A DNA stretch of 38,571 nucleotides from Candidatus Peregrinibacteria bacterium (GTDB lineage: Bacteria; Patescibacteriota; Gracilibacteria; UBA1369; LOWO2-01-FULL-3), in contig JACPLZ010000024.1 in the NCBI GenBank assembly GCA_016186245.1, positions 17,941 to 56,511 of the forward strand. Reading direction: 5' to 3'. Positions 9,911-38,571 of the stretch are shown in pieces. Each line of letters opens with the position of its first letter. Positions within the stretch are counted from its first letter, which is position 1. The notes under the pieces were generated by a model. That model was given only the letters and a program-made list of their open reading frames with translations. It searched no databases and had not been told where the DNA came from. The position numbers were made by a program, and so were the translations under genes.

Positions 9911-9940
9911 CAAGAAAAATTTCCCAGGAAATTTTTCTTG
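9911..9940. terminator. Perfect 14-bp palindrome between secDF and tRNA-Arg (possible bidirectional terminator)
   Basis: CAAGAAAAATTTCC-CA-GGAAATTTTTCTTG lies between convergent genes. On the + strand the T-run begins only ~10 nt downstream, so the arrangement is not canonical. Confidence 0.45.
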
Positions 9941-9954
9941 GTATATCATTTTTT

Positions 9955-10031
9955 TGGTGCTCCCGAGAGGATTTGAACCTCTAACCTCCTGGTCCGAAGC
10001 CAGGCGCTCTATCCAGTTGCGCTACGGGAGC
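9955..10031 (-). tRNA. tRNA-Arg (anticodon UCG) with encoded CCA
   Basis: The reverse complement GCTCCCG-TA-GCGC-AACTGGATA-GAGC-G-CCTGG-CTTCGGA-CCAGG-AGGTT-AGAGG-TTCAAAT-CCTCT-CGGGAGC-ACCA folds as a 77-nt cloverleaf. The acceptor, anticodon and T stems are perfect, and the D stem has one G-A mismatch. Confidence 0.9.
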
Positions 10032-10402
10032 AAGTGCAAAGAAAATATCTATATCTTCATTCCTTATACCTCCAACCAACATCGTTGCCATCGACATTAA
10101 CAACATGTTTTTGTACTTCTACCATACCAATAAGGTTAATAAATAAAGGAGGCAATTGTACTAATTTGCATCAATCCGTACAACTATTCTACACCAACCA
10201 AACCCTGAAACGTTCGGATTTTTCCAGAATCCTATGCTCTCTGTTCAGATTAAACAGATAGGAAAAAATAGTCAAATTACCCAGTAAAGTAAGGTCATGT
10301 CCAAATTGCCTCTTAATTCCTTCATTTTTATGCCTGTTTTCCTGTGAATTGTTCATTTTAGGCTTGTTTAAGCCCAAAAGCTTACAGGAAAATCACAAAT
10401 TG

Positions 10403-11704: not shown

Positions 11705-11725
11705 AAATTTTTACAAAATCCCACA

Positions 11726-11734
11726 ATTATAGCA
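11726..11734 (-). promoter_or_regulatory. Extended -10 TGCTATAAT for the M15 peptidase gene
   Basis: The reverse complement reads TTGCTATAAT, a perfect extended -10, 21 nt upstream of the ATG at 11704. Confidence 0.5.
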
Positions 11735-11761
11735 AAAAAAGACATGTTTTTCAATTAGGTA

Positions 11762-11770
11762 TGCTATATT
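11762..11770 (+). promoter_or_regulatory. Extended -10 TGCTATATT, 6 nt upstream of the priA ATG (leaderless start)
   Basis: The sequence reads TGCTATATTTCCCGC-ATG. The same TGCTATATT-N6-ATG arrangement occurs at the riboflavin kinase gene. Confidence 0.55.
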
Positions 11771-11776
11771 TCCCGC

Positions 11777-19330: not shown

Positions 19331-19390
19331 TTCGACAAGCTCACAATGACAATTTTGTCACCCTGAGCTTGTCGAAGGGTCACAATGACA
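19331..19390. repeat. Hairpin repeat (TTCGACAAGCTCA ... TGAGCTTGTCGAA) downstream of lgt
   Basis: It has a perfect 13-bp stem (19331-19343 with 19364-19376) and an inner TGACAA-TT-TTGTCA stem. It is flanked by a direct repeat TCACAATGACA (19341 and 19380). Confidence 0.7.
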
Positions 19391-19822: not shown

Positions 19823-19930
19823 CTGAAAATTGATGCAGTGCGAGGAAACAAGCTATTTCTGACCGAGCCGTATTTACTGATACTGCGAGTAAGAAATAGC
19901 GCAGCTGACAAAGCAATGCGCAATTTTCAG
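19823..19930. repeat. 108-nt structured repeat, copy 1 (long imperfect hairpin with 10-bp terminal inverted repeats)
   Basis: CTGAAAATTG...CAATTTTCAG ends enclose nested stems GCTATTTCT/AGAAATAGC and GCCGTAT/ATACTGC. It is about 80% identical to 28511-28619 and lies between convergent genes. Confidence 0.7.
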
Positions 19931-19935
19931 AGGTT

Positions 19936-21729: not shown

Positions 21730-23496
21730 TTAAGATAACTTTAGTAACCCCTGCTGCGTCGCCAATAAACTTTTCAGTTTTTCCTTATCCCCGGAATCTT
21801 CAGCCTCTCCAATCTGTCTTTGTATTTCCTTTAGCTCTATATTTCTGCGATCTTTTCGCAGCTTGTCAATCAATTTTTTCACCTCCTCCTCAAGAGTTTG
21901 CTCGGAAAAATTTGCATACCGGTCTTCCGCGTACAAACGCCACACAGCAACTTTACCGCTTGCATCAGCCAAACAACCGTCATCAAAACTCCATCCCACA
22001 AATTTACCTCGGGTCGAATTATACTGATCGGTTAGAGCATTGTAAACATTTTTAAGGTAGACATCAGATTCTAAATTCTGATCAAGATTTTTCAACAAAT
22101 CCTTCACAGCCGGAAAAAGAAGCGGATATTCCAGAAGAATAGAAATAAGAACTTCCTGGGAAGGAAATTTCCTGCTTCCGGAAACATTTCCCTCAGCTCT
22201 CGCAGGATGGGTACGAGGCAATTTCATATTGGCAATTTCATCATAGAGAAATTTTTGATCCATGTTTAGTTTACCGGCCAGTTCCCTCACGAAATAATCG
22301 CGATTTACCGCCGACATCCCATCAAAACACGGCAGAAGCTGGGAAATCACTTCATTTCTGCCGCTTAAAGCAGCTATATCGTTTTCCAATATAAGTCGTT
22401 CAATAAAAAAACTCACAAAATTTTTAGCATTGTCCACCATCTTTTTAAATTCTCCTCCATGCTCCAAAACAAAATCCGCCGGATCTTTTTGCTCAAGAGC
22501 GATAGTTTTTATTTCAACACCTTCCTCTCTAAACATGAAATAAGCCCTTCTGGAAGCCTCAAATCCGGCCTTATCACTATCAAAACAGCTGATCACATTT
22601 TTAGTCAGTCTCTTTACTTGCCGCACCTGCCCCGCAGAAAACGCCGTTCCCGAACTGGCCACAACATTCTTAATCCCTTCCTGATGAGGCAAAATAACAT
22701 CAAAATATCCTTCCACTATCACAGCCTTATCTTCTTCTTTGATGTATTTCTTGGCATGTGAAAGCCCATAAATCACTTTGCTTTTACTGTAAACAGGATT
22801 TTCCGGAGAGTTAAGGTATTTTGGCTGCTGCTCTTTTTGCAAAGCACGTCCGCCAAAACCGCAAATTCTGCCGAGATAATCAAAAATCGGAAAAATAAGC
22901 CGCAAACGGTATTTATCATAAATTCTTTCATCACCGATATTTTTCGCGGAAGCCAGACCTGATTTCAAAATAACATTTTTGGGGATACGTTTTTTGAGAA
23001 GAACAGGATGCAAAGCATCAAAACTATCCGGCGCAAATCCAAGGCGAAATTCCCTGATTGTCCCATCATTCACTCCCCTTTTATAAAGATAGTTCAAAAC
23101 TTTTTTGCCTTCATCGGTCTGCAAAAGCTGCTCTTCAAAAAACTTCGCAGCAATTTCTTGGGCCTCAAAATAAATATCCTTCTCATCTTTATCAACTTTT
23201 TTGGCCAACTTTTTATCATCGATTTTCACACCGGCCCGATCAGCCAAAATCTGCAAAGACTCGCGGAAATTAACCCCTTCCAATTCTTGTATGAAAGTGA
23301 AAATATCACCGCCTTTATTACAGCCGAAACAATGGCATATCTGTTTTTCCGGACTTACCACAAAACTCGGAGTTTTTTCACTATGAAAAGGGCAGAGACC
23401 TTTCAAATTTCTGCCAAGTTTTTTCAGCTGGACATATTGGGAAACAACCTCTTCGATACCCAGCCGGCTTTTAATTTCTTCAACAACATCCGCCAT
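21730..23496 (-). CDS. dnaG: DNA primase
   Basis: It has a zinc finger (CPFHSEKTPSFVVSPEKQICHCFGCNKGGD) and a TOPRIM region (AVIVEGYFDV...SCFDSDKAG). The start at 23496 (MADVVEEIK) is preferred because TGCTATAAC lies 9 nt upstream, and the 23523 start would translate that promoter. Confidence 0.85.
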   Translation of the reverse strand: MADVVEEIKSRLGIEEVVSQYVQLKKLGRNLKGLCPFHSEKTPSFVVSPEKQICHCFGCNKGGDIFTFIQELEGVNFRESLQILADRAGVKIDDKKLAKKVDKDEKDIYFEAQEIAAKFFEEQLLQTDEGKKVLNYLYKRGVNDGTIREFRLGFAPDSFDALHPVLLKKRIPKNVILKSGLASAKNIGDERIYDKYRLRLIFPIFDYLGRICGFGGRALQKEQQPKYLNSPENPVYSKSKVIYGLSHAKKYIKEEDKAVIVEGYFDVILPHQEGIKNVVASSGTAFSAGQVRQVKRLTKNVISCFDSDKAGFEASRRAYFMFREEGVEIKTIALEQKDPADFVLEHGGEFKKMVDNAKNFVSFFIERLILENDIAALSGRNEVISQLLPCFDGMSAVNRDYFVRELAGKLNMDQKFLYDEIANMKLPRTHPARAEGNVSGSRKFPSQEVLISILLEYPLLFPAVKDLLKNLDQNLESDVYLKNVYNALTDQYNSTRGKFVGWSFDDGCLADASGKVAVWRLYAEDRYANFSEQTLEEEVKKLIDKLRKDRRNIELKEIQRQIGEAEDSGDKEKLKSLLATQQGLLKLS

Positions 23497-23550
23497 AGCG
23501 CCCAAGTTATAGCAGAGGAACAAAAAGTTTCCTAGGAAATTTATATATCA

Positions 23551-24591
23551 TCAATCCATCCTCCTCCTTCCCCCAAACACCAGCGCCACCGCCAAAAGCA
23601 ACATCATCAAACCAAGCGCGATAATCATAAACAGCTTCTGCCTGCTATCCACAAGCACCACAGAAGTAAATCCAAAAAACGCCGTAACGCCAAGATATAT
23701 CAGAATCACCATCCGCTCAGACAAACCCAGATCAAGCAGACGATGATGCAGATGCTTTAAATCGCCTTTCCAAAATTTCTGCCCCGACCAAAGACGGCGT
23801 AAAACCACCCAAATCATATCCAAAATAGGGATACCCAAGACCAAAAAAGCCGTCGCCACCTTTCCGCCGGAAAAAATCGCCAACGTAGCAATCACAAATC
23901 CAAGCAACGTACTGCCGGTATCCCCCATCAAAATCGCCGGCCGCGGAAAATCGAAAATCAGAAATGCCAGCGAAATCATCGCGACAATCAGCGCAATCGT
24001 AGCCACGCCAATCTGTGACTGCGGATCCACATGCAGTCCAGGATGAATACTCAAAATGAATAAAGTCAGCCCTGAAATAAAACCGATCCCGCTCGTCAAA
24101 CCGCTGACACCGTCAACAAAATTCATGGTATTTACAATCGCCATCACCCAAAAAATCGTAAAAATCGCACCGACAAGCGGCGCACTCATATCGATAATCC
24201 CCAAAAACGGAATATTTACAGACAGAATACCAATCCCCGACCACACCAGAATCAACGCTGCCAGAAAGTGAAAACCGATCCTCAGCAACGGACTGATCCT
24301 TTTGGAATCATCCCAAAATCCGATTGCCGCAATCATCAAAGCGCCAACAAGCAACCCCACAAGTTGCCTGGAAATCGGCACAAATATCAGGACAGAAACA
24401 ATAAAAGCCAGAAAAATGGCTATACCTCCATAGTAAGGTATCGGCTTACGCTTAAGCCCATATAGGAGTGGTCGATCAATCAACCCAAACTGCGGAAAAA
24501 TTTGAATTGCAATTGTCGTAAGCAGCCCCGACAGCCCAAAAGCAAAAAAGGCCGGCCGCCAATACTGTGCTAAAATTTCCTGAAAATTCAT
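23551..24591 (-). CDS. Polyprenyl-phosphate sugar-1-phosphate transferase, glycosyltransferase family 4 (WecA/TagO-like rather than MraY)
   Basis: It has GLIDRP...RKPIPYYGGIAIF, a DD motif (FWDDSKRISP), NTMNFVDGVSGL and MGDTGSTLLGF. It is polytopic and 346 aa. Confidence 0.75.
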   Translation of the reverse strand: MNFQEILAQYWRPAFFAFGLSGLLTTIAIQIFPQFGLIDRPLLYGLKRKPIPYYGGIAIFLAFIVSVLIFVPISRQLVGLLVGALMIAAIGFWDDSKRISPLLRIGFHFLAALILVWSGIGILSVNIPFLGIIDMSAPLVGAIFTIFWVMAIVNTMNFVDGVSGLTSGIGFISGLTLFILSIHPGLHVDPQSQIGVATIALIVAMISLAFLIFDFPRPAILMGDTGSTLLGFVIATLAIFSGGKVATAFLVLGIPILDMIWVVLRRLWSGQKFWKGDLKHLHHRLLDLGLSERMVILIYLGVTAFFGFTSVVLVDSRQKLFMIIALGLMMLLLAVALVFGGRRRMD

Positions 24592-24598
24592 ATGCGGG

Positions 24599-24607
24599 AT
24601 ATTACCA
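24599..24607 (-). promoter_or_regulatory. Extended -10 TGGTAATAT, 7 nt upstream of the GT4 transferase ATG (leaderless start)
   Basis: The reverse complement reads TGGTAATATCCCGCAT-ATG. Confidence 0.5.
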
Positions 24608-24612
24608 CAAAA

Positions 24613-25482
24613 TCATTTTATCTGTTTTTTGAATTTTATTCCTCCGCGAAAATTTTCAACAACTCCAACAAGTTTTCCTTTATTAAAAGCCATAGAACAG
24701 GAACCATGTTCGATTTTTTTATTCTCTAAAGTTTTACCATCGCCAAGCTGCAAGAGTTCTTTATCTGTTAAAATAGTACAAGGAAACTTTTCAGCTATTT
24801 TCTCAAGGCTCAGCAATTCTTGTTCGAAATTTTTATCCAGCTCACACACTTTTACCGCCCCGGAAACCAAAAAATCATTGATTGATAGTCTTCTCAACAA
24901 AGCCACATACGCCCCGCAACCAATTTTCTCTCCCAAATCAGAAATCAAAGATCTTATATAAGTCCCTGCACTGCATTGGACACGGAATCTGACCAGAGGC
25001 CAGTCATTTTTCAAAATTCTAAATTTATCAATAAGGATTTTTCTCGGTTTCATTTCCACCTCATTCCCGGAACGCATAATATCGGAGGCTCTCTTTCCGG
25101 CTATTTTCAGCGCTGAATATTTTGGCGGCACCTGTAAAATTTCACCGGAAAAATTGTCGGAAATGATTTTTTTCATCTCAAAATTTGTTTTCCGCGGAAA
25201 ATCAAACGAACTTTCAACAATTGTTCCATCCCTGTCTCCTGTTGACGACACAGCGCCAAACCTCGCAGCAACTTCATAGGTTTTGTCACAGCCCAGTAAA
25301 AATTCCAGAAGTTTCGTCGCCTCTCCAACAGCCACAATCAACAGTCCAGTAGCCAGCTTATCCAGTGTACCTGCATGGCCGACACGCCGCATGCCGGTGA
25401 GCTTTCTCACAGCCATAACAACTTCAAAAGAAGTCATCCCCTCTTCCTTGTCTATTAAAAAAAATCCGTTTATCATAATCAC
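24613..25482 (-). CDS. truB: tRNA pseudouridine(55) synthase
   Basis: GFFLIDKEEGMTSFEVV...VGHAGTLDKLATGLLIVAVGEATKL is the TruB catalytic Asp motif, and a PUA-like C-terminus is present. Confidence 0.9.
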   Translation of the reverse strand: MIMINGFFLIDKEEGMTSFEVVMAVRKLTGMRRVGHAGTLDKLATGLLIVAVGEATKLLEFLLGCDKTYEVAARFGAVSSTGDRDGTIVESSFDFPRKTNFEMKKIISDNFSGEILQVPPKYSALKIAGKRASDIMRSGNEVEMKPRKILIDKFRILKNDWPLVRFRVQCSAGTYIRSLISDLGEKIGCGAYVALLRRLSINDFLVSGAVKVCELDKNFEQELLSLEKIAEKFPCTILTDKELLQLGDGKTLENKKIEHGSCSMAFNKGKLVGVVENFRGGIKFKKQIK

Positions 25483-26783: not shown

Positions 26784-26799
26784 ATTGATAGTTTACCGT

Positions 26800-26914
26800 G
26801 TCATCCTGAACTTGTTTATTTGTCATCCTGAACTTGTTTTTTGTCATCCTGAACTTGTTTCAGGATCTAACATTCCCAGTTAACCGTGAGATCCCGAAAT
26901 AAATTCGGGATGAC
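26800..26914. repeat. Hairpin-repeat cluster: three tandem GTCATCCTGAACTTGTTT units plus a GAGATCCCGAAATAAATTCGGGATGAC hairpin
   Basis: Units start at 26800, 26822 and 26843 (period 21-22 nt). The third completes the palindrome ATCCTGAA-CTTGT-TTCAGGAT. A second hairpin ATCCCGAA/TTCGGGAT lies at 26891-26911. Confidence 0.75.
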
Positions 26915-27320: not shown

Positions 27321-28514
27321 ATGTTTCTAAATACGCTCAACAAAATTCTCCTCATCATCAATATATTGTTTATCCAGTCATATTTGATCCGCTTCCACAT
27401 AGGCCCGTATCCCAGCAATCTCCAGGAAATTCTGATCGCCGTCAACGCACTGACATTTCTTTCAATAACACCAATAAAAGAAATCTTTGCAGGATTGAAA
27501 CGCCACCGCGTAATTACATTGTTAATCGGCCTGACATTGCTAACCTCAATAATATCTCTTTTCGAAATTACAGAAATCATCAACCAACTCACCTACATCC
27601 GTCACTTAAAATTTACATTTTTCGGACTGGCGCTAAGTTTCATTTTTCTGGAAACATTCAGATCAGGACAGGAACGCCTGGCAGGGCTTAGAATAATGGG
27701 AATCGGCGCAGTAGCATTTGGAATTTTTTCGGCAATTTACAATCTGCTCGGCTTTAACGTAACCCATGATTACAGACTGCTCGGACCGCTCGATGGCGCA
27801 ATTTCAATGGCCTTTTACCTTGCGCCGTTTTTCATTTTTTTCACAATTGATTTTTTTGAAACCAAAAAGAAAATCAGCCTGGCATTCGCGCTGATCCTGG
27901 CAATCCTCATTGCCACCACCCGTTCCATGGGAACAATCGCCGGAAGCCTGGCCATACTCATTATTTATGCGCTGAAAAAAAGAATGACCAAAACAACTTT
28001 AATCATCACGGCAACAATAAGTCTATTTATAGTCGCGCTCATTTTCTACACAAAAATTCTGCCAACATTGAACACAAATTATTCAAGTTTGGATGAACGA
28101 AGAGATATTTGGCAAACATCCATGACCTTTCTCAGGGAACCGAAAAACTTTATTTTCGGGCTTGGCCTGGGACAATTTGAGGAAAACTATCTGCAAAATG
28201 TTTATCTGATACTTGGCCGCCCGCCACTCGATTATCACGTTCTCCATCCACATAATACTTTCCTGCTTTTTATATTCAATTATGGAATAGCAGGCCTGAT
28301 CTTTATCTCATGGCTTATTTACAACGCAATTAAAAATTTCTTTCAGTCCTCAAAAATTGATCTCAGGTTTATCGCCAGTCTTATTTTCCTTTATTTCGCC
28401 CTGCATGGAATGATAGACACTCCATTTTTCAGGAACGATCTGCTGTTTTTGCTCATATTATTTATGGAACTATTAGTAAAGAATCAAAAAGAGCATAGCA
28501 TTCAGGATTTCTAA
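27321..28514 (+). CDS. O-antigen ligase family (Wzy_C-type) polytopic membrane protein
   Basis: It has about 10 TM segments, a loop ERRDIWQTSMTFL...FGLGLGQFEE and HPHNTFLLFIFNYGIAGL, which is the typical H.HN....G..G signature. Confidence 0.7.
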   Translation: MFLNTLNKILLIINILFIQSYLIRFHIGPYPSNLQEILIAVNALTFLSITPIKEIFAGLKRHRVITLLIGLTLLTSIISLFEITEIINQLTYIRHLKFTFFGLALSFIFLETFRSGQERLAGLRIMGIGAVAFGIFSAIYNLLGFNVTHDYRLLGPLDGAISMAFYLAPFFIFFTIDFFETKKKISLAFALILAILIATTRSMGTIAGSLAILIIYALKKRMTKTTLIITATISLFIVALIFYTKILPTLNTNYSSLDERRDIWQTSMTFLREPKNFIFGLGLGQFEENYLQNVYLILGRPPLDYHVLHPHNTFLLFIFNYGIAGLIFISWLIYNAIKNFFQSSKIDLRFIASLIFLYFALHGMIDTPFFRNDLLFLLILFMELLVKNQKEHSIQDF

Positions 28515-28619
28515 AAATTGATGCAGTGCAAGGAAGTAAGCCATTTTCGACTGAGCCGTACTTACTGGTACGGCGAATAGAAAATTGGCGCAGCTGACGC
28601 AGCAATGCGCAATTTTCAG
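28511..28619. repeat. 109-nt structured repeat, copy 2
   Basis: It is homologous to 19823-19930 and has a perfect central stem GCCGTAC-TTACTG-GTACGGC. It also lies between convergent genes, and its last bases overlap the tpiA stop codon. Confidence 0.7.
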
Positions 28620-29278
28620 AAATCCAATCCCTTCACAATATCCAACAAAGCTTTCTTAGGATCATCCGCTTTTATCACTCCGGAAGCCAACAAAACCCCG
28701 CTCGCACCAAGCTGTAATGCAATCTTTACATCCTCGCCACTTTTTACTCCAGCGCCGACAAGCAGCCGCCCCTGCCCGGCAATTTTCACAGCCTCCACAA
28801 TCACACCCGGCTCCGCCCGGCTCACGGAAATATCTCCGCCGATCAAATCGGGCGGCTCCACGGCAATCAAATCCGGCTCAAATTTTTTAACCTCCGCCGC
28901 TCGCGCCGGCGTCTCCGCACAGGCGATCACAAACAGCCCCAGCTCATGACATTTTTTCACACTTTGCTCCAACTCCTCATTTCCAATCTGATACTCCGCA
29001 TGATTCAGCAAAGTGCCATAGCAACCGACCGCCTTTACCTGCTCCGCAAGCACTTTTCCTGTCCAGCTGCCATATCCGGTATGATCCACATGCTGCGCAA
29101 AAACCGGAATTTTCACAGTCCCGATCACATTTACCAGATCGACCGCATTCACCGCAATACCAATGGAAGCGCCCGTCTCCGCAGCTACTTCATCATGGAT
29201 TCTGGCCAACTTAAGAGCATTTTCCCCGGTCGCTTCCTGATAGACCTTAAAATTAACGATAATTACAGGCAACTTCAT
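28616..29278 (-). CDS. tpiA: Triosephosphate isomerase, archaeal-type short form (220 aa)
   Basis: IIVNFKVYQEATG, IPVFAQHVD...GS.TGKVL, GTLLNHAEY, AVEPPDLIGG and GAGVKSGEDVK...GVLLASGV.KADDP align along the whole length with archaeal TIMs. The start at 29278 (MKLPV) is preceded by TATATT at 6 nt. Confidence 0.85.
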   Translation of the reverse strand: MKLPVIIVNFKVYQEATGENALKLARIHDEVAAETGASIGIAVNAVDLVNVIGTVKIPVFAQHVDHTGYGSWTGKVLAEQVKAVGCYGTLLNHAEYQIGNEELEQSVKKCHELGLFVIACAETPARAAEVKKFEPDLIAVEPPDLIGGDISVSRAEPGVIVEAVKIAGQGRLLVGAGVKSGEDVKIALQLGASGVLLASGVIKADDPKKALLDIVKGLDF

Positions 29279-29313
29279 GCACCCAATATACTTGAAAAAA
29301 CATCTCCGCACAA

Positions 29314-29342
29314 TTGACCAAACAGGTTAAATTTGATATAAT
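29314..29342 (+). promoter_or_regulatory. Near-consensus sigma-70 promoter for the giant-gene pair (TTGACC-17 nt-TATAAT with extended TG)
   Basis: TTGACC is at 29314-29319 and TGATATAAT is at 29334-29342. The -10 ends 32 nt before the ATG at 29375, and the A-rich leader has no Shine-Dalgarno site. Confidence 0.6.
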
Positions 29343-29374
29343 TAAACGAAAATTTTGAAAACAAAAACAAACAG

Positions 29375-32300
29375 ATGTTTAAAGAAAGATTTCTGATATT
29401 CAGGGGTGAAAATTCAGAAAAACAGCCGGACTCCAGTGAAAGATCACACGGCGATAGAACTAATCTTATAGAAAACACAACCGAAGCTTTGGAAAATCTG
29501 GCCGAGACAATTGCCGTACTGGAAGATAAAAAAATCGATGAAAAAGTAAAAGAAGAAATTGCTCATAACATTGTAGATAATATATCGGAAGCGGCAATCA
29601 TCAAACTGCTGACAGACCGTAAAATCAGCCAGGAAACAAGAGACCTGATTTTCCGGCAATTGGGCAATAAATTATCCAATGATTTTTCCAGACTTGATAA
29701 TGAATCCACACGAACAATCGTAAATTACGCTCTGCTGGAATCAAAACAGGATTCACAACAATATAGAACTCTAAGCCAAAATCTCGACAGAGCCTGCATG
29801 GATAAACTCGATTTGCAGACAATTAAAGACTTGCTATCGCTAGCCTTCTGGCATGATAAAAATCTTTACAGAAAAATTCTGCCGTTGATTGGCAATGAAC
29901 AAAAAACAAAACTATTAGAAGATGAGGCTCTCGATATCCAATTCACAACGGATTTGAGAAATACCGTAGAATCCCCTATTCCGCAAAAAACCCCAGAAAA
30001 AGCCCCAAAAAAAATCACCAAAAAAACGCTGGAGAAAAAACTTTTCGCAAAATTATCAATCAAAGAAGGCAGATCGATCAACGAGCTTACCGGACAGCAA
30101 CTCAATGTCCTGGAAAAAAGCGTCAATAAAATCCGCGAAACAATCCAAAACGGCAAAGACATCAATGCCATAATGAGAGATATCGAAAAAACCGCGAAAA
30201 CCGCATACGGATTTCTTGGCTACTCGCCAATAGAATTCATAGAAATAGCCGGACCTGCGAACATAGACGCAAACACCTCAATAATTTGGAATCTGAAAAT
30301 AGAAAATGGCAATATTACCAAAATCGCCAATCGAAACACAATCCTGACTATAAAAGAGCGGCAACTTGTATTAAATTCACAGGAATACCAGAATTTTCTC
30401 GAGAGAGGCAAACGCACCGCCACGGAAATAGAAACCGACAAATCCCTTAAAGACAGCGAAAGGAGCCGAAAATACGAGTACAATCGCACTTACCAGGAAC
30501 TAACCGACAAGGTTTTTACGGTAAATTTGGATGACACCGACGAGGACAATATAATCGAAAATTGGAAATCGTTTCACGATTATCGTGAAGTAAACCGCAT
30601 TATGACAGGCTATCCATTCTCCGTGGATGAAATGGCCATCAGCAAAAAAGCAGCCGCCATCATCGCGGAAGGCTGGGACAGCGAGGTAAAATTTGAGGAT
30701 ATTTTCGCGCAAATGGATGGATTTAAAGCTGTCGACAGTCAAAAAATTCCAAAAGAATTTATGCGGGATTCCGCTGTATTTCTGGAAGAATTTAACAGGC
30801 TCAAAAATAACCAGACACCTCTCCCGGAAGAGGAAATCGCCAGACGGGATAATATGTTTAATGTTTTGAGCCGCTGTCTTGATCTGCTTTACGCGCTGTC
30901 AAATTTGCGGGCCAAAGAAAAGCAACCGGAGCCGGAAGAGTCGAAAATTCCTGAAACACTCTCCGATGCGGCGCGAACAGAGCAGGAAGAAATCTACGAT
31001 GCGCTCACCGAACTCACGGAATATGACATCGATTCAAGCAATGTCTGGCACGAATTTTACTCCTTGGCTTTTGAAGGAAAACACAAAACCGATATCACCA
31101 TGGCCGATATGGACGGTACAACTTTCACGGTTTCACAGGGAACTTTCAAGGATCGCTACAATCCAAGAGCCGCCTCCGACATTATCACGGAAACACCGGG
31201 AAATTATCACTTTGAAAATGGCATAAAACTTCTCGACAGATCAGCAATTCTCACATACATCAACGAAAGGATAAAACTTGGCAGCATCAATATCGCGCTG
31301 GCGGAAGCCAATGTTGCCAATCTGGAAGATTTTCACAGCAATATTGGACAAAAGATGAACAATCTTTATATCACTGATTTAACAGAGTTGTCCGATGAAC
31401 AAAAAGAAGCCTTTCAGCTTGGTTTCATAGTCGCTGAATCCAGAAAAAGCGCCGCCCAGCTTAGCGAAGCAGCGGAAAAAAATCCGATTTTCAGACAGCT
31501 TCATGAAAAAATGCGCCTTGAGGGAGTAAGCGCGGAAGATAGAAAAAAAATCGAAGACGGGTTGATCGCAGCAGGTGGCATCACAGTCGATACGCGCACA
31601 GGGGAAATCAACGGTTTTGGCGCAGGCGCAAACATTCTTAAAATTTCCGACAACATCACCATTTCCGCATTTGGCGGAAGTTTTGACGGAAACATAATTG
31701 TGGGAGGAAAACTTCAAATCAATATAGTCAATAACGAAAACAGAACAATCGCCATCGAAATACCAATCAGCATTGCCGGTATCGGCGCCGGCGCATCATG
31801 GAGAGAAAAAATCGGCGAATACAATCTGGATATTTTTGCCGGAGGACAACTGAATTTTGAGAACTTAATGCCAATTGCCGGAGGCGGCATCATGATTTCC
31901 GTAAATACCGAAGAAAGACTTAACAGAAATCTGGAAGAAGCGCAGAAGCAGGGAAATCTCGCGCAAATATGGAAAGAATGGAAAAATCTGCCCAAAAGCG
32001 ATATAGCAGGAAAATATGAAAAATTAAAAACGCTGCAACCGCTTTATAGCCGGTTACAACCGCTCGAAAGATACTACGGCCTGACAAAAGAAGACATTGT
32101 TTTTATCGTTGAAGGCGTCCAGGACAAAATCAAAGAGGAAGTTTTTGAAAATACCAGTTCTTCCTTGATTGAAGGAATCCCCCTGCTGTCGCATGCCGGA
32201 TTCATTATGCTCGGAGTAGTGCCTGTCCCGGCGGTAGGCATAGAAATCCTCGGCGCAAAAATTTCCATCCCAAACCGCAGTGAAATTTCCCGATTGATAA

Positions 32301-34411
32301 AAACCGCATCCGACATCCGTCTAAAAAACAGATTGGAAGATGCCGTCGCCGCACTAGATAACCCGGAAAACAGACAGCAGATATCATTCGTTGAAGAAAC
32401 CCCAAACATCATGTACAGCCGCGACGGCAAACTATTAAGCCTCACAAATAAATATGAAATCAATCTGGACTCATGGCTGACCAGTCCCGAAAGTTACAAC
32501 GAAGGGCTTAAAAAAGCCGAAATACAACTGATAGAGCTTCCATCCGGAGCAATAGAACTCCACGTCCTAAACACTCAAAACAAAGATGTGGAAATTTATA
32601 TCGATCCGGAGTTGAAAGAATTGGGAGTGATCAAAGACGGCCAGCATATCTTCCTGGAAGGAAATATGGATGATCTCATCATCAGCCGTGAAAGATTTAC
32701 TTTGCCTTTTGAGCAAACCGAAGACAACGCCAGCATCCGCGACATCATTACAATCCGCCAAAAATCATCCGTGGAAGGAAACCGCGACAGCTCATTCCTT
32801 CAAAATTATTCTCCGACCTTTTTGCAAAAACTGGCTCACGAAGCCTACTTTGATATTTACAAAGCAAACAGAACAAAAAAATCGACGAATATTTTTGAAG
32901 CGCCGGGATATTCCACAAACAAATTTCAGCAGGGACTGGACAATAAACCGGTATTTACGGCATCAATAAAACAGCGCCGCGCTTACCAGATTTTATCCGA
33001 GCTTCGCAGCCACCGCCCCGAGATGAGACATAAAATAGATAAACAGGATATCCGCAACATGGAAACATTTTTCAAGAACCGCCATGAAAGCATGGGAAAT
33101 ATAAGCCATGCCGGACAAATACGCTACAATCTCCTTCCAGATATCACCGCGCTTTTCCGTGAAGACCCAAATTTCAAAGAAAAAATTGGTGAAAACGCCA
33201 ACAAACCGGAAGAAATAATCAGACTTTTGAAAAGATACGGCACTGCCACCGACGGTTTACAAAATCTTTCCGAAACCGAATCAACCATGGCAGTAACACA
33301 TCTTCTCAACCTCTGGTATACCGATTTCTACAAGACCGGAGCGGAAAAAGCCGAACCAAACAATCTCGAAAAAATCAATCGTGAACTTCTAACAGTCCTT
33401 GATCAGCACATCGGATTCATAAAAAACCGGGTATTTATACCGGCATTCAAAACTGCAATCGCGCGGATAAATCCAAAACCGGCGATTACCGCCGAAAAAG
33501 CCGCCAACATATTGATCGAAGACACCGGCGGAGAACTGAGAAAAATAATTCTTGGAGATCTCAAAAAATTCGACTACACCAAAGACATAGAAATCAACCG
33601 CATCCCGGAAGACGCCTACTTTTTTTCAGGCTCGCGCATCGGCGAAGGCCAAACACGCAAAGGCGCCATCACCGGAACAATAGATTATAAAAATATCGAA
33701 AAAAATGCCGGCAATTTAATCCATGATCTTGGCTTTATCAATGGCACCAGCATGAGCTATAGACTCAATTCTCCGGACCCTGAAAAAAGAGCAATCGCCA
33801 GAATTTTGCTGGAAATCGCCAGTCCGATCCCGACAGACAATCTTGAATTTCTCAACAGCCCGCTGGCCATAAAAATTGCCAGCATGAAGAGCCATCTATT
33901 GTTGGCTTACAGCGATGATTTGCAATTTGAGGACTACAAAAATATTTCCAAAGTTTATCAGGATCCAAGCATCCTTAGCCGAAATAGCGACGCAATTATA
34001 GCGTTTCGGAAATTCAAAAAACTTATCATGGATATCCGCACGGCACAGATCAACGGCACAACTTTTGAAAAAAGAATCGGCTCAACCGGCCTGACAGTCC
34101 GCATAAAAATAGACACAAAAATTACCGCCGGTTCCTATTCCAAATGCGCCAATCCAAGTTTTTACGTCGTTGAAAACGGCCATGTGGAAATACTGAAAGA
34201 CAATAAGACAATCGCCGCATTTGAAATGTCCAATGAAACAGTCGACAGCGATCTTTCCAAATTATTCCGCTCGGTCGGATTCGGCGTAGGCATAACAGAA
34301 AGCGAGCCACCGGCCGCGCCAAAAATAAAAGGAAAACCATCGGGAGTTTCCCAAACCAGAGTATCCACCGGAGAAACACCGGAACAAATAATTTCATCCG
34401 ATTATGAATAA
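29375..34411 (+). CDS. Giant hypothetical protein A (1678 aa), no signal peptide and no recognised domain
   Basis: It is an uninterrupted 5-kb ORF with coding-like composition, a K/E-rich helical N-terminus and a central Gly-rich hydrophobic block. It has only 3 Cys. Confidence 0.8.
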   Translation: MFKERFLIFRGENSEKQPDSSERSHGDRTNLIENTTEALENLAETIAVLEDKKIDEKVKEEIAHNIVDNISEAAIIKLLTDRKISQETRDLIFRQLGNKLSNDFSRLDNESTRTIVNYALLESKQDSQQYRTLSQNLDRACMDKLDLQTIKDLLSLAFWHDKNLYRKILPLIGNEQKTKLLEDEALDIQFTTDLRNTVESPIPQKTPEKAPKKITKKTLEKKLFAKLSIKEGRSINELTGQQLNVLEKSVNKIRETIQNGKDINAIMRDIEKTAKTAYGFLGYSPIEFIEIAGPANIDANTSIIWNLKIENGNITKIANRNTILTIKERQLVLNSQEYQNFLERGKRTATEIETDKSLKDSERSRKYEYNRTYQELTDKVFTVNLDDTDEDNIIENWKSFHDYREVNRIMTGYPFSVDEMAISKKAAAIIAEGWDSEVKFEDIFAQMDGFKAVDSQKIPKEFMRDSAVFLEEFNRLKNNQTPLPEEEIARRDNMFNVLSRCLDLLYALSNLRAKEKQPEPEESKIPETLSDAARTEQEEIYDALTELTEYDIDSSNVWHEFYSLAFEGKHKTDITMADMDGTTFTVSQGTFKDRYNPRAASDIITETPGNYHFENGIKLLDRSAILTYINERIKLGSINIALAEANVANLEDFHSNIGQKMNNLYITDLTELSDEQKEAFQLGFIVAESRKSAAQLSEAAEKNPIFRQLHEKMRLEGVSAEDRKKIEDGLIAAGGITVDTRTGEINGFGAGANILKISDNITISAFGGSFDGNIIVGGKLQINIVNNENRTIAIEIPISIAGIGAGASWREKIGEYNLDIFAGGQLNFENLMPIAGGGIMISVNTEERLNRNLEEAQKQGNLAQIWKEWKNLPKSDIAGKYEKLKTLQPLYSRLQPLERYYGLTKEDIVFIVEGVQDKIKEEVFENTSSSLIEGIPLLSHAGFIMLGVVPVPAVGIEILGAKISIPNRSEISRLIKTASDIRLKNRLEDAVAALDNPENRQQISFVEETPNIMYSRDGKLLSLTNKYEINLDSWLTSPESYNEGLKKAEIQLIELPSGAIELHVLNTQNKDVEIYIDPELKELGVIKDGQHIFLEGNMDDLIISRERFTLPFEQTEDNASIRDIITIRQKSSVEGNRDSSFLQNYSPTFLQKLAHEAYFDIYKANRTKKSTNIFEAPGYSTNKFQQGLDNKPVFTASIKQRRAYQILSELRSHRPEMRHKIDKQDIRNMETFFKNRHESMGNISHAGQIRYNLLPDITALFREDPNFKEKIGENANKPEEIIRLLKRYGTATDGLQNLSETESTMAVTHLLNLWYTDFYKTGAEKAEPNNLEKINRELLTVLDQHIGFIKNRVFIPAFKTAIARINPKPAITAEKAANILIEDTGGELRKIILGDLKKFDYTKDIEINRIPEDAYFFSGSRIGEGQTRKGAITGTIDYKNIEKNAGNLIHDLGFINGTSMSYRLNSPDPEKRAIARILLEIASPIPTDNLEFLNSPLAIKIASMKSHLLLAYSDDLQFEDYKNISKVYQDPSILSRNSDAIIAFRKFKKLIMDIRTAQINGTTFEKRIGSTGLTVRIKIDTKITAGSYSKCANPSFYVVENGHVEILKDNKTIAAFEMSNETVDSDLSKLFRSVGFGVGITESEPPAAPKIKGKPSGVSQTRVSTGETPEQIISSDYE

Positions 34412-37400
34412 ACTAACAAAAAAATCAGTCATCGGCGCACTGGCAGCAGTAATCCTGACAGGAGCAGCATTTAACATCAGCACATACGCGGATGAAAATA
34501 CTTCACCGGATTGTTCAGAAATCATTCAATATTTCAGTGAAAGACTGGACACCATAGATGATTCAGCAGTCTACGAAGGAAGCACGGATTGTGACAACAG
34601 CCACTTCGAACCATTCCCGGGCAGACACACGGAAACAATTGATCCGTCAACCCATCAGGCTACTGATAAAACAGCGCATCAGCCATTTTCCGAACACAGC
34701 CACACCTATATCAACCAATCGGAAGAAAACATAGGTACACAATATAACTATTACACAAGAGCCATAATTGACACTTTCGAAATAAAACTCCACGAAGATT
34801 TTCAAGAAACAATCGATTTTGATTCCATAGAATGTTCCGGATTGCCGGAAAATAATAATTGTACAGGCGAAAAATCAAGCGGGAGTAGAACCTATACAGT
34901 AACTTTCGACAGAACAAATGGGATAATTCAATGGAGATTTACAGGAGAAAAACCAAAAATTGCCGGAAAGAACCCGCATCTAGATCAATTAAGGGGAACT
35001 CCAGGATATTCTTCCGAAGAAATAAATAGAATGGTCAAAGAAGGGATAAGCTTCAAAACCAACGAACAGGAAAAAGAATTTTGGAGCGCGACCTCCACCG
35101 CAAAAATACTGATAAAAGATCAATTCGCCAAACTTCCCGCTTCAGCAACAACATCAGTAATAGGAACTCTGGCATGGCAGGACGCAGAGCCGGCCGGCGC
35201 AGATCCGGACAATGATAAATTTTATTGGTTTGACATCGGCACAACCAGCACCGTCTGGCAAAAAGAAATCGCCCAAGTCGAAGAAGCCTGCAAGGACATC
35301 CAGATAGATCATCCCGAAGACATATACGAAGGAACATTATCACGATTCAGAGCCCGCGCAATCAGCGGCGGCACAGGAGAAACACTTGGCGGCAAAATCA
35401 GATATTCGGTTGAAAACGGCCATGGCGCTTTTTATGCAACCAGACCGGAGAATTTGCCAACATTCATATTAAATTCATCAAGAATGATCAACGAAATACC
35501 TCTGACATCATTTATGTCCACAAACATACTCGAGTTTATCAATGAATTATTCGGAGAGGAAAGATCACCAATCCCGTCAATCCCAACACCTGCAGATTTT
35601 GGCTCTACTTCAGTAGTTGAGGCAGCAACCGTATTCAGCGCGGGCGGCAATACCGTAGAAGTGGATCCATACAAAAATGTTTATTTCATGGCGGATCAGG
35701 CCGGAAACGATGTCATCCACATTCAGCCTATAAACGATCCGGGCAATTACTGCAAAAGAGATTTCGACATCATTCCAAAAAATGCCTGCGCAAATCTTGA
35801 GCTTATCAGTAATCCGACAGCTCCGCTGACAATCGGCCAAAACGCCGAATTAAATCTGGTAAACCCTCTCGACATCAACGGAAATCCGCTTCCTCCTTCC
35901 ACCAAAATAGTCTGGAGCAGCGGCAATACCCGGGGAAGATTTACTTATGGCGACCGGACAGGCAGGACACTCACGCTCAACCTTGACCAGCAGCCGGTGC
36001 AAATCAGCGGTATCGTATTGCCTGGCCTTATACAGGCCAAAGTCCAACCAGGCGATCTTGCCTATTCAAACAAATGCCAGCCGACAATCTCTGTAGAATT
36101 ACCACTTGCCTGCAAAAATTTACGTCTCCAGGTACAGGAATTCAACAAGAATGAATTCGGCGCAAACGAAACGAAGTATATTCTTGAATCAAACGGATTC
36201 TACAAAGTCGAAGGATATCCGGCATTCACACGCCCAAATTCAGAAATAACTGTAGGCTACACGATTGATCCTGATTTCGGCACTTTTGTAAAAATTTCCA
36301 GCGACAGTTCTTCTGTTTGGAATATTTTAACAATCAATGCGCTAAGACTTGCAAATAATCTCACGCCCGAAACTTTGGAAACGACTCTTGGAAGCGAAAA
36401 ACTCAACAAAACAATCACACTCCCCCAGGGCAAAAAAGCACACCTCATAACATTCAGCAATAATGAACACAGCAGCGACGCCGCTTTGAGAGTGAAGGCA
36501 ACCGGATTCAATTGCGGCGCGGCAATGGAATTTAAAGGCATCGCAGATGTCCTGCAATCCATGGAATGTCTCGACCTCGAGATTATTGAGCCTTCCGAAC
36601 CGTGGTACATAAATGACAAAGACACCGAAACAATAAAAATCAGCGCCACCACCGATCCCGCCGGCAAAGAAGAAGACCTGCATTTTACCTGGAAAGTTTC
36701 CAACGGCGGCAAATGGGAGGAAACAGATACAGCGCTGATCGAAGCCAAAAAAACAGACACAACTCAAACTCTAAAAGATTTCACCAAAGATACGGTTGTG
36801 GAAGTTTGGGCCGAAGAAAATAAAAATGCCTGCTACGATAAACTGACCGCCCGCGAACTTGAAAAGCCTGGAGAGGAGCCGGAGAAAGAGGTCCCAGAAA
36901 TCAACAAGTTTGCTTTCAGCGAAAACGATATTGACCATGCCGATGATGACATCATCAATATAAGCAGCGAGACCGATTATGTTACTTACATGATCGCCTA
37001 CACTCCGGGCGATTATAATTCCGTATCAATTCAGGAAACAAGCCTTGAAAACGGAGAGATCAGGAGCATCGGCAACCTCAACGGCTCGCTCAAATTTACC
37101 GCGATGAATATCACGATTTTGAAAGACGGCGCAAGCCAGGCTGTAAAAATTCTGCAGACTGCCGGCTATCGCGACGATTATCAGGATCGCCGGGCAAAAA
37201 CCACCGCCAAAGATTATTCCTGCGAAAATAATAACGACGATTTTTGTTTTGAAGATGATGCGGAAGAACTGGTGAATAAATTCAAAAATGGCCGGACAAT
37301 CCGTTTTAATAACACTGACGAACTTGGAACTGATGGCAAGCTGATCATCAAATATCAATTGGCCAACAAATCGGAAATAGATGAAGATACTTGCAAAAAA

Positions 37401-38465
37401 ATGAGCGCCGATAAGGGCTGCGGTGAAGAATTCCGCAATGAGGCAAAATTTGTCGCTTACACAAATGATAATTACGAAGGCGACAAATATGAAGATAAAG
37501 ACAGCGCCAAAGTGATTGTTATTTGCCCTTACATCCTCACAAGATCAGGAGGCGACATATTTTTCTATGATGCTCTTGATACCGGAGTCGATGTGGCTGC
37601 ATGCGCTCCTGTAAAAGGAAGCGACGGACCTGTTGTTACGCCGGAAAGGCCGGAAAAACCCCGCCCGCCGGTAACCGGCGCAGGCGACCTGCCGGAAGCC
37701 ATCAGCTATCTTAACCTCCCATCTCACGATATTTGCCGTTATAGCAACCTAGAAAGCAATATCGAAAATTACAACGATGCCCTGAAAAATTTCTCGAGCA
37801 CAATTTGTGAATTGCGCGCAGAAGTAGCCGACAGCTGGCAGGAAGAAAATATCGTAAAATCAATCGCCGCAAACATCACCAGGATCGCCCGCTTCGGCGA
37901 AAACCTACTCCAATCGGAGCTTGATAGCATTCTTGATCTTACAACCACTGCAAATCGGCAGAGCGGAGTTTTTGTAAGAACAAGCGGAGACCTCGAAATC
38001 GGCAATAACGGCGTATATTTCATCAAAACCGGAAACAACATCCCTGCCGCACAGACATATATAATCCGCGGCCATGATCTATATATCAATTCCAATATTG
38101 AATATGGTCCGACAGATTACAGCAAACCAAAATCAATTCCTTCAGCGGCATTTATCGTACTGGACGGAAATATTCACATTGATAAGGATGTCAGCAGAAT
38201 TGATGGAATTTTCATGGCGGTTGATCTAAACCGCGACGGCAGCGATGGAAAAATCACCAGTGAAGGCGGCAAAACCACAACCCGTTTGCTCATCAACGGA
38301 AATTTGATCGGAAATGTTTACGATCTGTTTAAGAACAGAACAGGCGTGGGCGATCCGCGCAAAGACGAAGGCTCGGTAACAATTTACTATGATGAAAGAA
38401 TTTTATTGAACACCCCGCCTGGAATAAGCGAACTGATTGACCTGCAGCAAGCCATCGTGCCATAA
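34404..38465 (+). CDS. Giant hypothetical secreted or surface protein B (1353 aa)
   Basis: The N-terminal signal or anchor is MNKLTKKSVIGALAAVILTGAAFNISTYADE. It has 20 Cys in sequential pairs and repeated modules that open with C-x-[ND]-L-x-[LI]. An 8-nt overlap (ATGAATAA) links it to gene A. Confidence 0.8.
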   Translation: MNKLTKKSVIGALAAVILTGAAFNISTYADENTSPDCSEIIQYFSERLDTIDDSAVYEGSTDCDNSHFEPFPGRHTETIDPSTHQATDKTAHQPFSEHSHTYINQSEENIGTQYNYYTRAIIDTFEIKLHEDFQETIDFDSIECSGLPENNNCTGEKSSGSRTYTVTFDRTNGIIQWRFTGEKPKIAGKNPHLDQLRGTPGYSSEEINRMVKEGISFKTNEQEKEFWSATSTAKILIKDQFAKLPASATTSVIGTLAWQDAEPAGADPDNDKFYWFDIGTTSTVWQKEIAQVEEACKDIQIDHPEDIYEGTLSRFRARAISGGTGETLGGKIRYSVENGHGAFYATRPENLPTFILNSSRMINEIPLTSFMSTNILEFINELFGEERSPIPSIPTPADFGSTSVVEAATVFSAGGNTVEVDPYKNVYFMADQAGNDVIHIQPINDPGNYCKRDFDIIPKNACANLELISNPTAPLTIGQNAELNLVNPLDINGNPLPPSTKIVWSSGNTRGRFTYGDRTGRTLTLNLDQQPVQISGIVLPGLIQAKVQPGDLAYSNKCQPTISVELPLACKNLRLQVQEFNKNEFGANETKYILESNGFYKVEGYPAFTRPNSEITVGYTIDPDFGTFVKISSDSSSVWNILTINALRLANNLTPETLETTLGSEKLNKTITLPQGKKAHLITFSNNEHSSDAALRVKATGFNCGAAMEFKGIADVLQSMECLDLEIIEPSEPWYINDKDTETIKISATTDPAGKEEDLHFTWKVSNGGKWEETDTALIEAKKTDTTQTLKDFTKDTVVEVWAEENKNACYDKLTARELEKPGEEPEKEVPEINKFAFSENDIDHADDDIINISSETDYVTYMIAYTPGDYNSVSIQETSLENGEIRSIGNLNGSLKFTAMNITILKDGASQAVKILQTAGYRDDYQDRRAKTTAKDYSCENNNDDFCFEDDAEELVNKFKNGRTIRFNNTDELGTDGKLIIKYQLANKSEIDEDTCKKMSADKGCGEEFRNEAKFVAYTNDNYEGDKYEDKDSAKVIVICPYILTRSGGDIFFYDALDTGVDVAACAPVKGSDGPVVTPERPEKPRPPVTGAGDLPEAISYLNLPSHDICRYSNLESNIENYNDALKNFSSTICELRAEVADSWQEENIVKSIAANITRIARFGENLLQSELDSILDLTTTANRQSGVFVRTSGDLEIGNNGVYFIKTGNNIPAAQTYIIRGHDLYINSNIEYGPTDYSKPKSIPSAAFIVLDGNIHIDKDVSRIDGIFMAVDLNRDGSDGKITSEGGKTTTRLLINGNLIGNVYDLFKNRTGVGDPRKDEGSVTIYYDERILLNTPPGISELIDLQQAIVP

Positions 38466-38483
38466 ACATGACCGGAATTCACT

Positions 38484-38571
38484 GTCATGGTGAGCTTGTC
38501 GAACCATCGTGTCATCCTGCAGATTTTTGCCTCGCAAAAATCCCTTCTCCTTCTCCTGTGTCATCCTGCAG
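38484..38571. repeat. Hairpin-repeat cluster downstream of giant gene B (runs off the window)
   Basis: It contains GTCATGGTGAGCTTGTCGAACCATC, then GTCATCCTGCAG with a 9-bp stem GATTTTTGC-CTC-GCAAAAATC (38522-38542), then a second GTCATCCTGCAG at 38559-38571. Confidence 0.65.

Follow-up and report, generated by a model that had tools for sequence, protein, structure and literature searches.

Two consecutive giant genes, which we refer to as A and B, lie at the end of a 38,571-nucleotide (nt) stretch of DNA from a Candidatus Peregrinibacteria bacterium (assembly GCA_016186245.1, contig JACPLZ010000024.1, forward-strand positions 17,941 to 56,511), hereafter the window (Table 1). An earlier note, made from the letters of the window, had drawn attention to these open reading frames (ORFs) of 1678 and 1353 amino acids (aa) and to their 8-nt overlap, and our re-derivation of the coordinates gave the same lengths and the same overlap, ATGAATAA. 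The note recognized neither protein as a member of a named family, and our searches agree: A and B have no match in Pfam, NCBIfam, PADLOC, PHROGs or any PDB sequence, profile searches of the PDB with alignments of the A family and of the C-terminal base of B found nothing, and Foldseek comparisons of the predicted structures placed neither protein in a characterized family. When Pfam was run on 20 members of the A family, it gave only stray TPR, thioredoxin or WG matches, all of which were in N-terminal extensions; it gave no match for five B homologs or for 21 members of the B C-terminal alignment.

Table 1. Features of the A-B locus, in window coordinates.
Feature	Position	Strand	Description
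tpiA	28616-29311	-	Upstream of A; triosephosphate isomerase (TIM) of only 231 aa
Sigma-70-type promoter of A	29314-29342	+	TTGACC (29314-29319), 17-nt spacer, TATAAT (29337-29342), extended -10 TG (29334-29335)
Gene A	29375-34411	+	ORF of 1678 aa
A variable N-terminal region, residues 1-230	29375-30064	+	K/E-rich; not alignable to relatives
A N-terminal motif FKERFLIF	29378-29401	+	Family pattern [FL]xExR[FLMV][VI][FY]; protein starts MFKERFLIF
A Gly-rich amphipathic 8-strand beta-meander, residues 732-843	31568-31903	+	AlphaFold strands at model residues 254-365; 17-22% Gly
A hydrophobic beta-hairpin, residues 938-968	32186-32278	+	GFxxxGxxPVPxxGxxxGSxxxxIPNR; modeled as a long hairpin; conserved in the family
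A best-conserved beta-rich domain, residues 1001-1178	32375-32908	+	KDVEIHIDP...GNIDDLIITRERF...SIRDxITIRQ; pLDDT about 85-95
A C-terminal beta-sheet, residues 1564-1641	34064-34297	+	Invariant C1591 and N1593; disordered Gly/Pro-rich tail after it
A/B overlap	34404-34411	+	8 nt; ATG of B (34404-34406) within the last codons of A; TAA of A ends at 34411
Gene B	34404-38465	+	ORF of 1353 aa
B signal peptide, Sec-type, residues 1-29	34404-34490	+	Predicted cleavage between TYA and DE; from sequence and hydrophobicity
B variable N-terminal two-thirds, residues 30-829	34491-36890	+	Boundary motif C-x11-17-C-x-[ND]-L at Cys 450/462, 558/570 and 704/722
B immunoglobulin (Ig)-like (Cna/pilin-type) beta-sandwich, residues ~830-1040	36891-37523	+	Model residues 30-240; pLDDT about 85-94
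B Cys-containing segment and Pro-rich linker, residues 1041-1150	37524-37853	+	CPYILTRxGGDxFF, PxHDxC, NFSSxICE; mostly low-confidence model
B beta-helix-like C-terminal domain, residues ~1189-1330	37968-38393	+	Model residues 389-530; short regular strands; pLDDT about 86-95
B C-terminal motif LLNTPPG	38403-38423	+	In 10 of 10 B proteins compared (window B and nine homologs) and in the 21-member B C-terminal alignment
Terminator-like hairpin, weak	38522-38542	+	57 nt past the stop of B; no clean T-run after it

The note had also called the two genes orphans, a description that does not hold. Since full-length A and B queries in a word-indexed search returned B alone, subregions were used as queries instead. 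An exhaustive HMMER search (phmmer) with residues 479-1678 of A against 1.84 billion representative sequences identified at least 88 clusters (50% identity) at E ≤ 1e-3, 51 of them at E ≤ 1e-30 and the best at 2e-220. Nearly all of the full-length relatives are 1500-3500 aa long and match almost the entire query; by BLASTP they are 23-36% identical to A over 1144-1533 aa and are colinear with it over ~1150 aa. The last 373 aa of B, used as a query, had 20 relatives with 39-62% identity, most of them cut at contig ends, and the C-terminal base of the B family (~500 aa) is 35-62% identical across relatives. Those B relatives that have a source name are from Candidatus Peregrinibacteria, Gracilibacteria or Patescibacteria, and the named members of the A family are all from Candidatus Peregrinibacteria. 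A scan of the GTDB species genomes found at least 10 A loci, eight in Peribacteria/Peregrinibacteria, one in Gracilibacteria and one in a "Patescibacteria group" genome; this number is a lower bound because the scan used only two peptide patterns, taken from a 10-sequence alignment (a 41-sequence alignment was too diverse for patterns). Based on these sequence searches, we consider A and B to be two uncharacterized families confined to Peregrinibacteria-type metagenome-assembled genomes.

The two families are found as a pair. A homolog of B directly follows a homolog of A in all 14 of the 14 related loci (designated with L numbers), and where the flanks are present the gene order is a Wzy-like gene, tpiA on the minus strand, A, B and holA. 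The longer order greA-rpoD-dnaG-GT4-truB-Mur ligase-Wzy, tpiA (minus strand), A, B, holA is present in L004, L006-L008, L010, L012, L014, L015, L017 and L018. In L006, L007 and L008, which are on contigs of 84-591 kb and in which a flavokinase gene may stand between the Mur ligase and Wzy genes, the A homologs are 2207, 3327 and 2221 aa long, respectively, the giant ORFs between A and holA are 1649, 2091 and 1699 aa long, and the gene order 5' of A is the same as in the window. The upstream order is also that of the window in L004, which has the closest homolog of A; L005 and L001 have A and then B; and a tblastn comparison, with A, B, TIM, Wzy and holA as queries and all loci as targets, agreed with this for L009, L010, L012, L014, L015, L017 and L018. 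In L013 it is the variable N-terminus of B alone that is present, and the ORF following A starts with a signal peptide and has motifs in common with other B homologs. The window itself has tpiA, A and B in the family order, with the position of holA falling past its end.

This tight linkage is in keeping with the note's argument that genes of this size retained in a reduced genome are under selection. It also answers two doubts raised there, in that homologs of A and B do co-occur, side by side, outside the source genome, and the ORFs are not assembly artifacts, as colinear homologs occupy the same position in at least 10 divergent genomes. We therefore regard A-B, on the evidence of gene order, as a vertically inherited unit at a fixed spot between tpiA and holA rather than as a cassette bracketed by repeats, as the note had described it. 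The L001 homolog of B is split into overlapping ORFs at 5782-9723 (1313 aa) and 9683-11353 (556 aa), either through a frameshift, through an error in sequencing or because the gene is truly split.

Repeats do exist near both ends of the 9-kb region, and they are what would favor a mobile, phage-derived or defense cassette, or an assembly artifact, as its source. However, tpiA stands between the repeat at 28511-28620 and gene A, and the short TGTCAYCCTGARCTTGT repeats that follow B recur at 19331-19376 and 26797-26863, away from A-B; since copies are present elsewhere in the window and tpiA intervenes, these are dispersed intergenic repeats and not cassette borders. In addition, the GC content of the A/B region is the same as that of the remainder of the window, which is uniform throughout, the homologs are colinear over their full length, and neither A nor B has a phage or defense match in PADLOC, PHROGs or, by structure, BFVD. 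The same position and neighbors in at least 10 divergent genomes effectively refute a cassette or artifact, and we consider such an origin highly improbable.

The repeats are of two kinds. An intergenic repeat of ~110 nt has copies at 28511-28620 and 19823-19931 that are 81-89% identical, each of which forms a long imperfect hairpin (minimum free energies of -41.3 and -38.2 kcal/mol, z about -5) and lies between convergent genes, Wzy (+) and tpiA (-) in one case and orf19369 (+) and greA (-) in the other. The repeat has no Rfam match at gathering score; it could act as a terminator in both directions or belong to a class of miniature repeat elements. Repeats of ~21 nt, TGTCAYCCTGARCTTGTYK, occur in intergenic DNA at 19331-19376, 26797-26863 and 38483-38528: lgt is followed by an inverted pair, the Mur ligase gene by three copies in tandem and B by two copies.

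The promoter of A scores 11/12 against the consensus and is 32 nt 5' of the ATG. The note had called it the strongest in the window, which was not confirmed: the near-consensus TTGACC-17-TATAAT with its extended -10 TG is real, but it ties with two other sites that reach 11/12, at (-)11754 and (-)22046. The former, TTGAAA-17-TG-TATAAT, is in the 11705-11776 intergenic gap, 5' of a VanY-like gene, and is a plausible promoter; the latter, TTTACA-17-TATAAT, is inside dnaG. The pattern TTGAC(C/T/G)-17-TG-TATAAT is kept 5' of the A homologs in five of the six relatives checked (L001, L004, L006, L008 and L010), with a weaker match (9/12) in L007, although the A proteins themselves are merely 23-36% identical. 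A conserved, near-consensus promoter suggests very high expression, and we expect that the A-B operon is probably strongly expressed. At the junction of the two genes, the gap between A and B in relatives ranges from +2 to +45 nt, versus -8 in the window, with A-rich leaders in which no obvious Shine-Dalgarno sequence was found. At the 3' end, the terminator-like hairpin is weak, and 38466-38571 does not fold better than shuffled sequences do (z = -1.0).

B has the features expected of an exported protein. It starts with MNKLTKKSVIGALAAVILTGAAFNISTYA followed by DE, with a K/K n-region and a 14-residue hydrophobic core, and a similar signal is present at the start of all 13 B homologs compared and of the L013 homolog. 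Every B homolog compared has a signal peptide, and those that are complete have 20-35 Cys, which can be compared with 20 Cys (1.48%), mostly in close pairs, in B itself. B also has the base motifs that characterize the family together with the signal peptide (CPYILTRxGGD, NFSSxICE, PAAQTYI, PSAAFIV and LLNTPPG). The N-terminal two-thirds of the protein diverge fast and vary in length among homologs. Self-BLAST found no internal repeats in B, in which only the Cys-boundary motif recurs, and residues 30-829 would be expected to form modular beta-sandwiches. A motif, [FY][TS]P-x(1,3)-R, follows the predicted cleavage site in the B homologs of L005, L006, L008, L010, L013 and L015; the B of the window (ADENTSPDC) is without a clear version of it.

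For the C-terminal part of B (residues 801-1353), an AlphaFold model built with 20 homologs has a mean pLDDT (predicted local distance difference test) of 70.7. Foldseek comparison of this model with the PDB gave 31 matches at E ≤ 1e-3 (best 9e-6); at the top were Cnm and CNA, through their collagen-binding domains, the Gram-positive pilins GBS80, SpaD and CppA, and TTHA1873 (8jl8, 7lgr, 1amx, 3pg2, 4hss and 5xcb; E 9e-6 to 3e-4). The 190-250 aligned columns of these matches fit the sandwich at residues ~830-1040 by length, and a Cna-type Ig-like fold is thereby found in the modeled domain. The beta-helix-like domain is the best-conserved part of the family. These results support much of the note's account of B, as the signal peptide and the 20 mostly paired Cys are present and one sandwich is modeled; the further sandwich modules that it describes in tandem are presumptive. 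The note was also right that B has no sortase signal: after the signal peptide there is no hydrophobic window, C-terminal LPxTG or charged tail, and the protein ends in ...LLNTPPGISELIDLQQAIVP. We considered sortase anchoring through an internal PxTG-like string in the Pro-rich linker and rejected it because the string is ~260 aa before the end of the protein, not C-terminal, and no membrane segment follows. Based on the model, B would work like a modular adhesin- or fiber-like protein.

Another reading is that A and B are the two major proteins of a surface layer (S-layer) or sheath, with a purely structural function and no role in host contact. S-layers have been seen on candidate phyla radiation (CPR) cells by cryo-EM, and the promoter and the low Cys content of A would suit such proteins. 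S-layer genes are among those reported in the article text on Peribacteria (PMC4736985), and in L006 a protein of 745 aa with an SLH domain is encoded right after holA, downstream of A-B (22732-24969). However, Pfam and NCBIfam detected neither an SLH domain nor any other known S-layer anchor in A, B or their homologs, A has no signal peptide, and the N-terminal part of B is too variable for a lattice former. A purely structural coat is, in our view, unlikely.

A differs from B in most respects. Its three Cys amount to 0.18% of residues, compared with 0.87% in the other proteins of the window, and its hydrophobicity profile has no N-terminal signal-like segment and no transmembrane helix, the sole long hydrophobic stretch (residues 930-966) being internal and broken by proline. 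Every A homolog compared is likewise without a signal peptide and has 3-10 Cys. The note's description of A as lacking a signal peptide, with three Cys, a K/E-rich N-terminus and an internal Gly-rich region, is thus borne out by composition and hydrophobicity. Members of the family consist of a variable N-terminus of 200 to >2000 aa, a conserved body of ~1200 aa and a disordered Gly/Pro-rich tail, and BLASTP alignments of A to relatives begin at residue ~204-335 or later. The extreme N-terminal motif, in its strict or loose form, is nevertheless present in most full-length members, and a scan of 224 ORFs from the window and the related loci gave the strict form nowhere else. A itself has the colinear C-terminal body and the motifs of the family (AFQLGF, KDVEIHIDP, LIITRERF, SIRDxITIRQ and YSKCxN). 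Conservation peaks at residues 1039-1158, and the invariant D1077, R1105, R1107, D1123 and S1132 could form a binding or catalytic site. Extra modules in the N-terminal extensions of the A homologs P0059, P0061 and P0044 include a CxxC domain resembling thioredoxin, GEF repeats that look MORN-like by eye, and TPR repeats, and several A homologs have long Pro/Ala-rich linkers in this variable region.

An AlphaFold model of residues 479-1678 of A, built with 40 homologs, has a mean pLDDT of 79.4, a predicted TM-score (pTM) of 0.65 and 474 residues at pLDDT ≥90. Along the chain it comprises, in turn, helical segments and a small alpha/beta unit, the 8-strand meander, a helical segment and the hydrophobic hairpin; these are followed by the beta-rich domain, a large helical region, a 4-5-strand sheet and the disordered tail. 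The meander strands are 8-14 residues long, and in family-averaged hydrophobicity most have one hydrophobic face (mean Kyte-Doolittle value 1.7-2.6) and one small or polar face, a pattern that would fit a lipid-facing barrel and a sheet packed against a protein core equally well. Foldseek searches of the PDB and BFVD with the model gave no match with E below 0.35, and the A body is apparently a new fold, without a structural neighbor. The best of the weak matches (E ≥ 0.39, ~120 columns) are all to membrane beta-barrels: the designed barrel TMB10 (8uzl, TM 0.50 on the target), NanC, KdgM, Pla, OccK, VDAC and Tom40. Judged by alignment length, the meander is most probably the part of A behind them.

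Such matches, as the only structural neighbors of A, lend themselves to a more elaborate explanation in which B docks the cell onto a host bacterium, and A is exported by a non-Sec route through its FxExRxVF N-terminal motif and inserts its meander and hairpin into the envelope of the host as a pore or nutrient conduit. The motif is conserved at the extreme N-terminus and unique to the family, the meander strands, at 8-14 residues, have one hydrophobic face, and A is depleted in Cys, as is typical of the substrates of secretion systems with narrow channels. A symbiotic lifestyle has, moreover, been inferred for the lineage in the article texts available (PMC4736985; PMC8080830). On the other hand, the host association of Peregrinibacteria is itself an inference, the barrel resemblance is not significant and falls where the model is least confident, the locus has no secretion system linked to it, and a role of the motif in folding or docking is equally possible. 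We regard this explanation as quite unlikely.

Taking the two proteins together, the reading that we prefer, with a rough probability of 0.4, is that A and B constitute an operon that is inherited vertically, strongly transcribed and specific to Peregrinibacteria, and whose products are most likely two components of an attachment or coat structure at the cell surface; the surface attachment role, the contact between A and B and the location of A are the parts of it that we infer. The operon structure, the conserved pairing, position and promoter, the signal peptide of B, the Ig-like fold of one of its domains and the lack of known domains are established by the data. B would be exported by Sec, with its signal peptide cleaved after TYA, and would fold as a chain of beta-sandwich modules stapled by disulfides, the variable N-terminal two-thirds forming the distal, target-facing end. 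Its conserved base of ~500 aa would consist of the Cna-type sandwich, the Cys-containing linker and the beta-helix-like domain ending in LLNTPPG. As B has no membrane anchor or sortase signal, this base would have to keep it attached to the cell by way of a partner or of a wall polymer. The meander and hydrophobic hairpin of A may associate with the membrane or envelope, and A, which would be inherited and transcribed together with B as its obligatory partner, may serve as a platform that retains B or helps to deploy it. A role in attachment agrees with the view, put forward in the article texts of PMC4736985 and PMC8080830, that large exported proteins of these bacteria serve attachment.

Several results weigh against this reading. 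No computation ties A physically to B: comparison of the A profile with the B-base profile found the two to be unrelated, with no common domain, and in a mirror-tree analysis across 10 genomes, for which TIM served as the control, r(A,B) was 0.36, below the correlation of either protein with TIM, while the partial correlation of A and B divergence beyond phylogeny (r = 0.03) is uninformative either way. The sandwich at ~830-1040 is the sole module of B that was modeled. For A, model confidence is lowest in the meander (pLDDT 46-77), its resemblance to barrels is below significance (E ≥ 0.39), and a protein without a signal peptide or transmembrane helix may simply be cytoplasmic.

That last point is the basis of the alternative that A is a cytoplasmic scaffold, biogenesis factor or enzyme that is merely co-transcribed with a secreted B. 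Under it, D1077, R1105, R1107, D1123 and S1132, along with C1591 and N1593, would make up a catalytic or ligand-binding site, which might modify B or the envelope polymers made by the Wzy-like, GT4 and Mur ligase proteins. The clustering of invariant charged residues in the most conserved domain, the lack of an A-B co-evolution signal and the nearby envelope-synthesis genes are all consistent with a cytoplasmic A. Yet no known enzyme or NTPase domain was found in A by Pfam, NCBIfam, PDB profile or Foldseek searches, the neighborhood is a general housekeeping block and not a dedicated envelope operon, and the Cys depletion and the hypervariable N-terminus with Pro/Ala-rich linkers are more like those of exported surface proteins than of housekeeping enzymes. 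We consider a cytoplasmic A a serious alternative, though a doubtful one.

Comparison with characterized systems shows how far the preferred reading, a two-part surface structure, resembles what is known. Like the adhesins of the MSCRAMM class (microbial surface components recognizing adhesive matrix molecules) and sortase-assembled pilins (CNA, Cnm, GBS80, SpaD and CppA), B has a Sec signal, an Ig-like sandwich and a presumably modular, rod-like build. Unlike them, it has no LPxTG, membrane-spanning segment or charged tail, ends in a beta-helix-like domain, and has no match to the Pfam models Cna_B, Collagen_bind, FctA and related ones. The MSCRAMMs and sortase pilins use isopeptide bonds, whereas B would rely on disulfides. 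Two-partner secretion systems and autotransporters are similar in having adjacent genes, one for a protein with what may be a barrel-like segment (A) and one for a secreted giant that is adhesin-like and partly beta-helix-like (B). They differ in that A is without a signal peptide, POTRA or ShlB domains and has ~8-14 strands at most, of uncertain topology, B is without the TPS (Haemagg_act) domain, and the gene order is reversed in its size logic; neither a 16-strand Omp85-type barrel, POTRA nor a TPS domain was matched in A or B in Pfam or NCBIfam. In general, CPR bacteria are considered to be without an outer membrane.

Tandem giant genes for adhesion or gliding occur in other reduced genomes, for example gli123-gli349-gli521 of Mycoplasma mobile, and P1 with the HMW proteins of M. 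pneumoniae. The resemblance of the A-B pair to these is an analogy, in that a minimal genome spends much of its coding capacity on a few adjacent, lineage-specific giants, which would build an attachment apparatus from surface and internal parts; Peregrinibacteria differ from Mollicutes in having a peptidoglycan wall. No RHS/Tc or RTX signature (YD/RHS repeats, TcB/TcC shell or GGxGxD nonapeptide repeats) was matched in A or B in Pfam or NCBIfam or by Foldseek and, by eye, the Gly-rich segment of A is without a 9-residue period.

The closest precedents are from the same or sister lineages. According to the article text of Anantharaman et al. (2016; PMC4736985), Candidatus Peribacter and other Peregrinibacteria encode large exported proteins, often rich in Cys, that are thought to attach to cells; the Peribacteria set consists of proteins of >1000 aa with 7.2 ± 2.4% Cys, some of which have integrin, FG-GAP or DUF11 domains. 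For Vampirococcus, of a related lineage, the text of PMC8080830 describes giant membrane proteins with a proposed role in attachment. As far as these texts describe them, such proteins share with A and B a length of >1000 aa, a signal peptide (B), the lack of annotation and variability among strains; the Cys-rich Peribacteria set differs in that B has 1.48% Cys and no Pfam domain and A has 0.18% Cys. We found no description of the A-B pair in the literature, and neither a signal-less A nor the order tpiA-A-B-holA appears in the passages of PMC4736985 and PMC8080830 consulted, a statement that does not extend to their supplementary tables.

Giant surface proteins in CPR bacteria are therefore already known, and what is new here is that two genes stand in a fixed arrangement, with synteny across the phylum and a conserved promoter, and that signal-less A proteins form a family without a structural neighbor. 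Little is known of how CPR (Patescibacteria) cells recognize, hold and exploit their partners beyond the type IV pili of cultured Saccharibacteria. The A-B pair takes up ~9 kb of a small genome and is at the same position in every related Peregrinibacteria-type genome examined; its size and fixed position, together with an adhesin-like B and a giant A, make it a lineage-defining candidate for part of the envelope or attachment apparatus of this phylum. Both families are sizeable enough for Pfam-type models. If A were membrane-inserting or exported, it would point to an unrecognized export signal and type of pore in what is believed to be a single-membrane bacterium, and if A did perforate a host to which B had docked, A would be an exported giant effector of a new kind and the pair would be a lineage-specific "dock-and-pore" feeding device, with a fold that has no PDB counterpart, in an uncultured CPR phylum.

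Outside of A and B, the gene content of the window is that of an ordinary chromosome of a reduced bacterium. It encodes pyruvate kinase, a prepilin peptidase, a SecDF-PpiC fusion, PriA, PyrG, Lgt, GreA, RpoD, DnaG, a GT4 protein of the MraY/WecA type, TruB, a Mur ligase, a Wzy_C protein and TIM. Pyruvate kinase (87-1097, +) consists of the 336-aa barrel domain alone, without a C-terminal domain and, together with the 231-aa TIM, fits the note's remark that this reduced genome trims its core enzymes. An ORF of 452 aa (17164-18522, +) without Cys or a Pfam match begins 2 nt past the stop of pyrG. The SecDF-PpiC protein is a single ORF of 1099 aa (6578-9877, +) in which SecD and SecF domains are joined to a PpiC-type peptidyl-prolyl isomerase domain (residues ~287-409), an unusual joining of translocon accessory and foldase functions.

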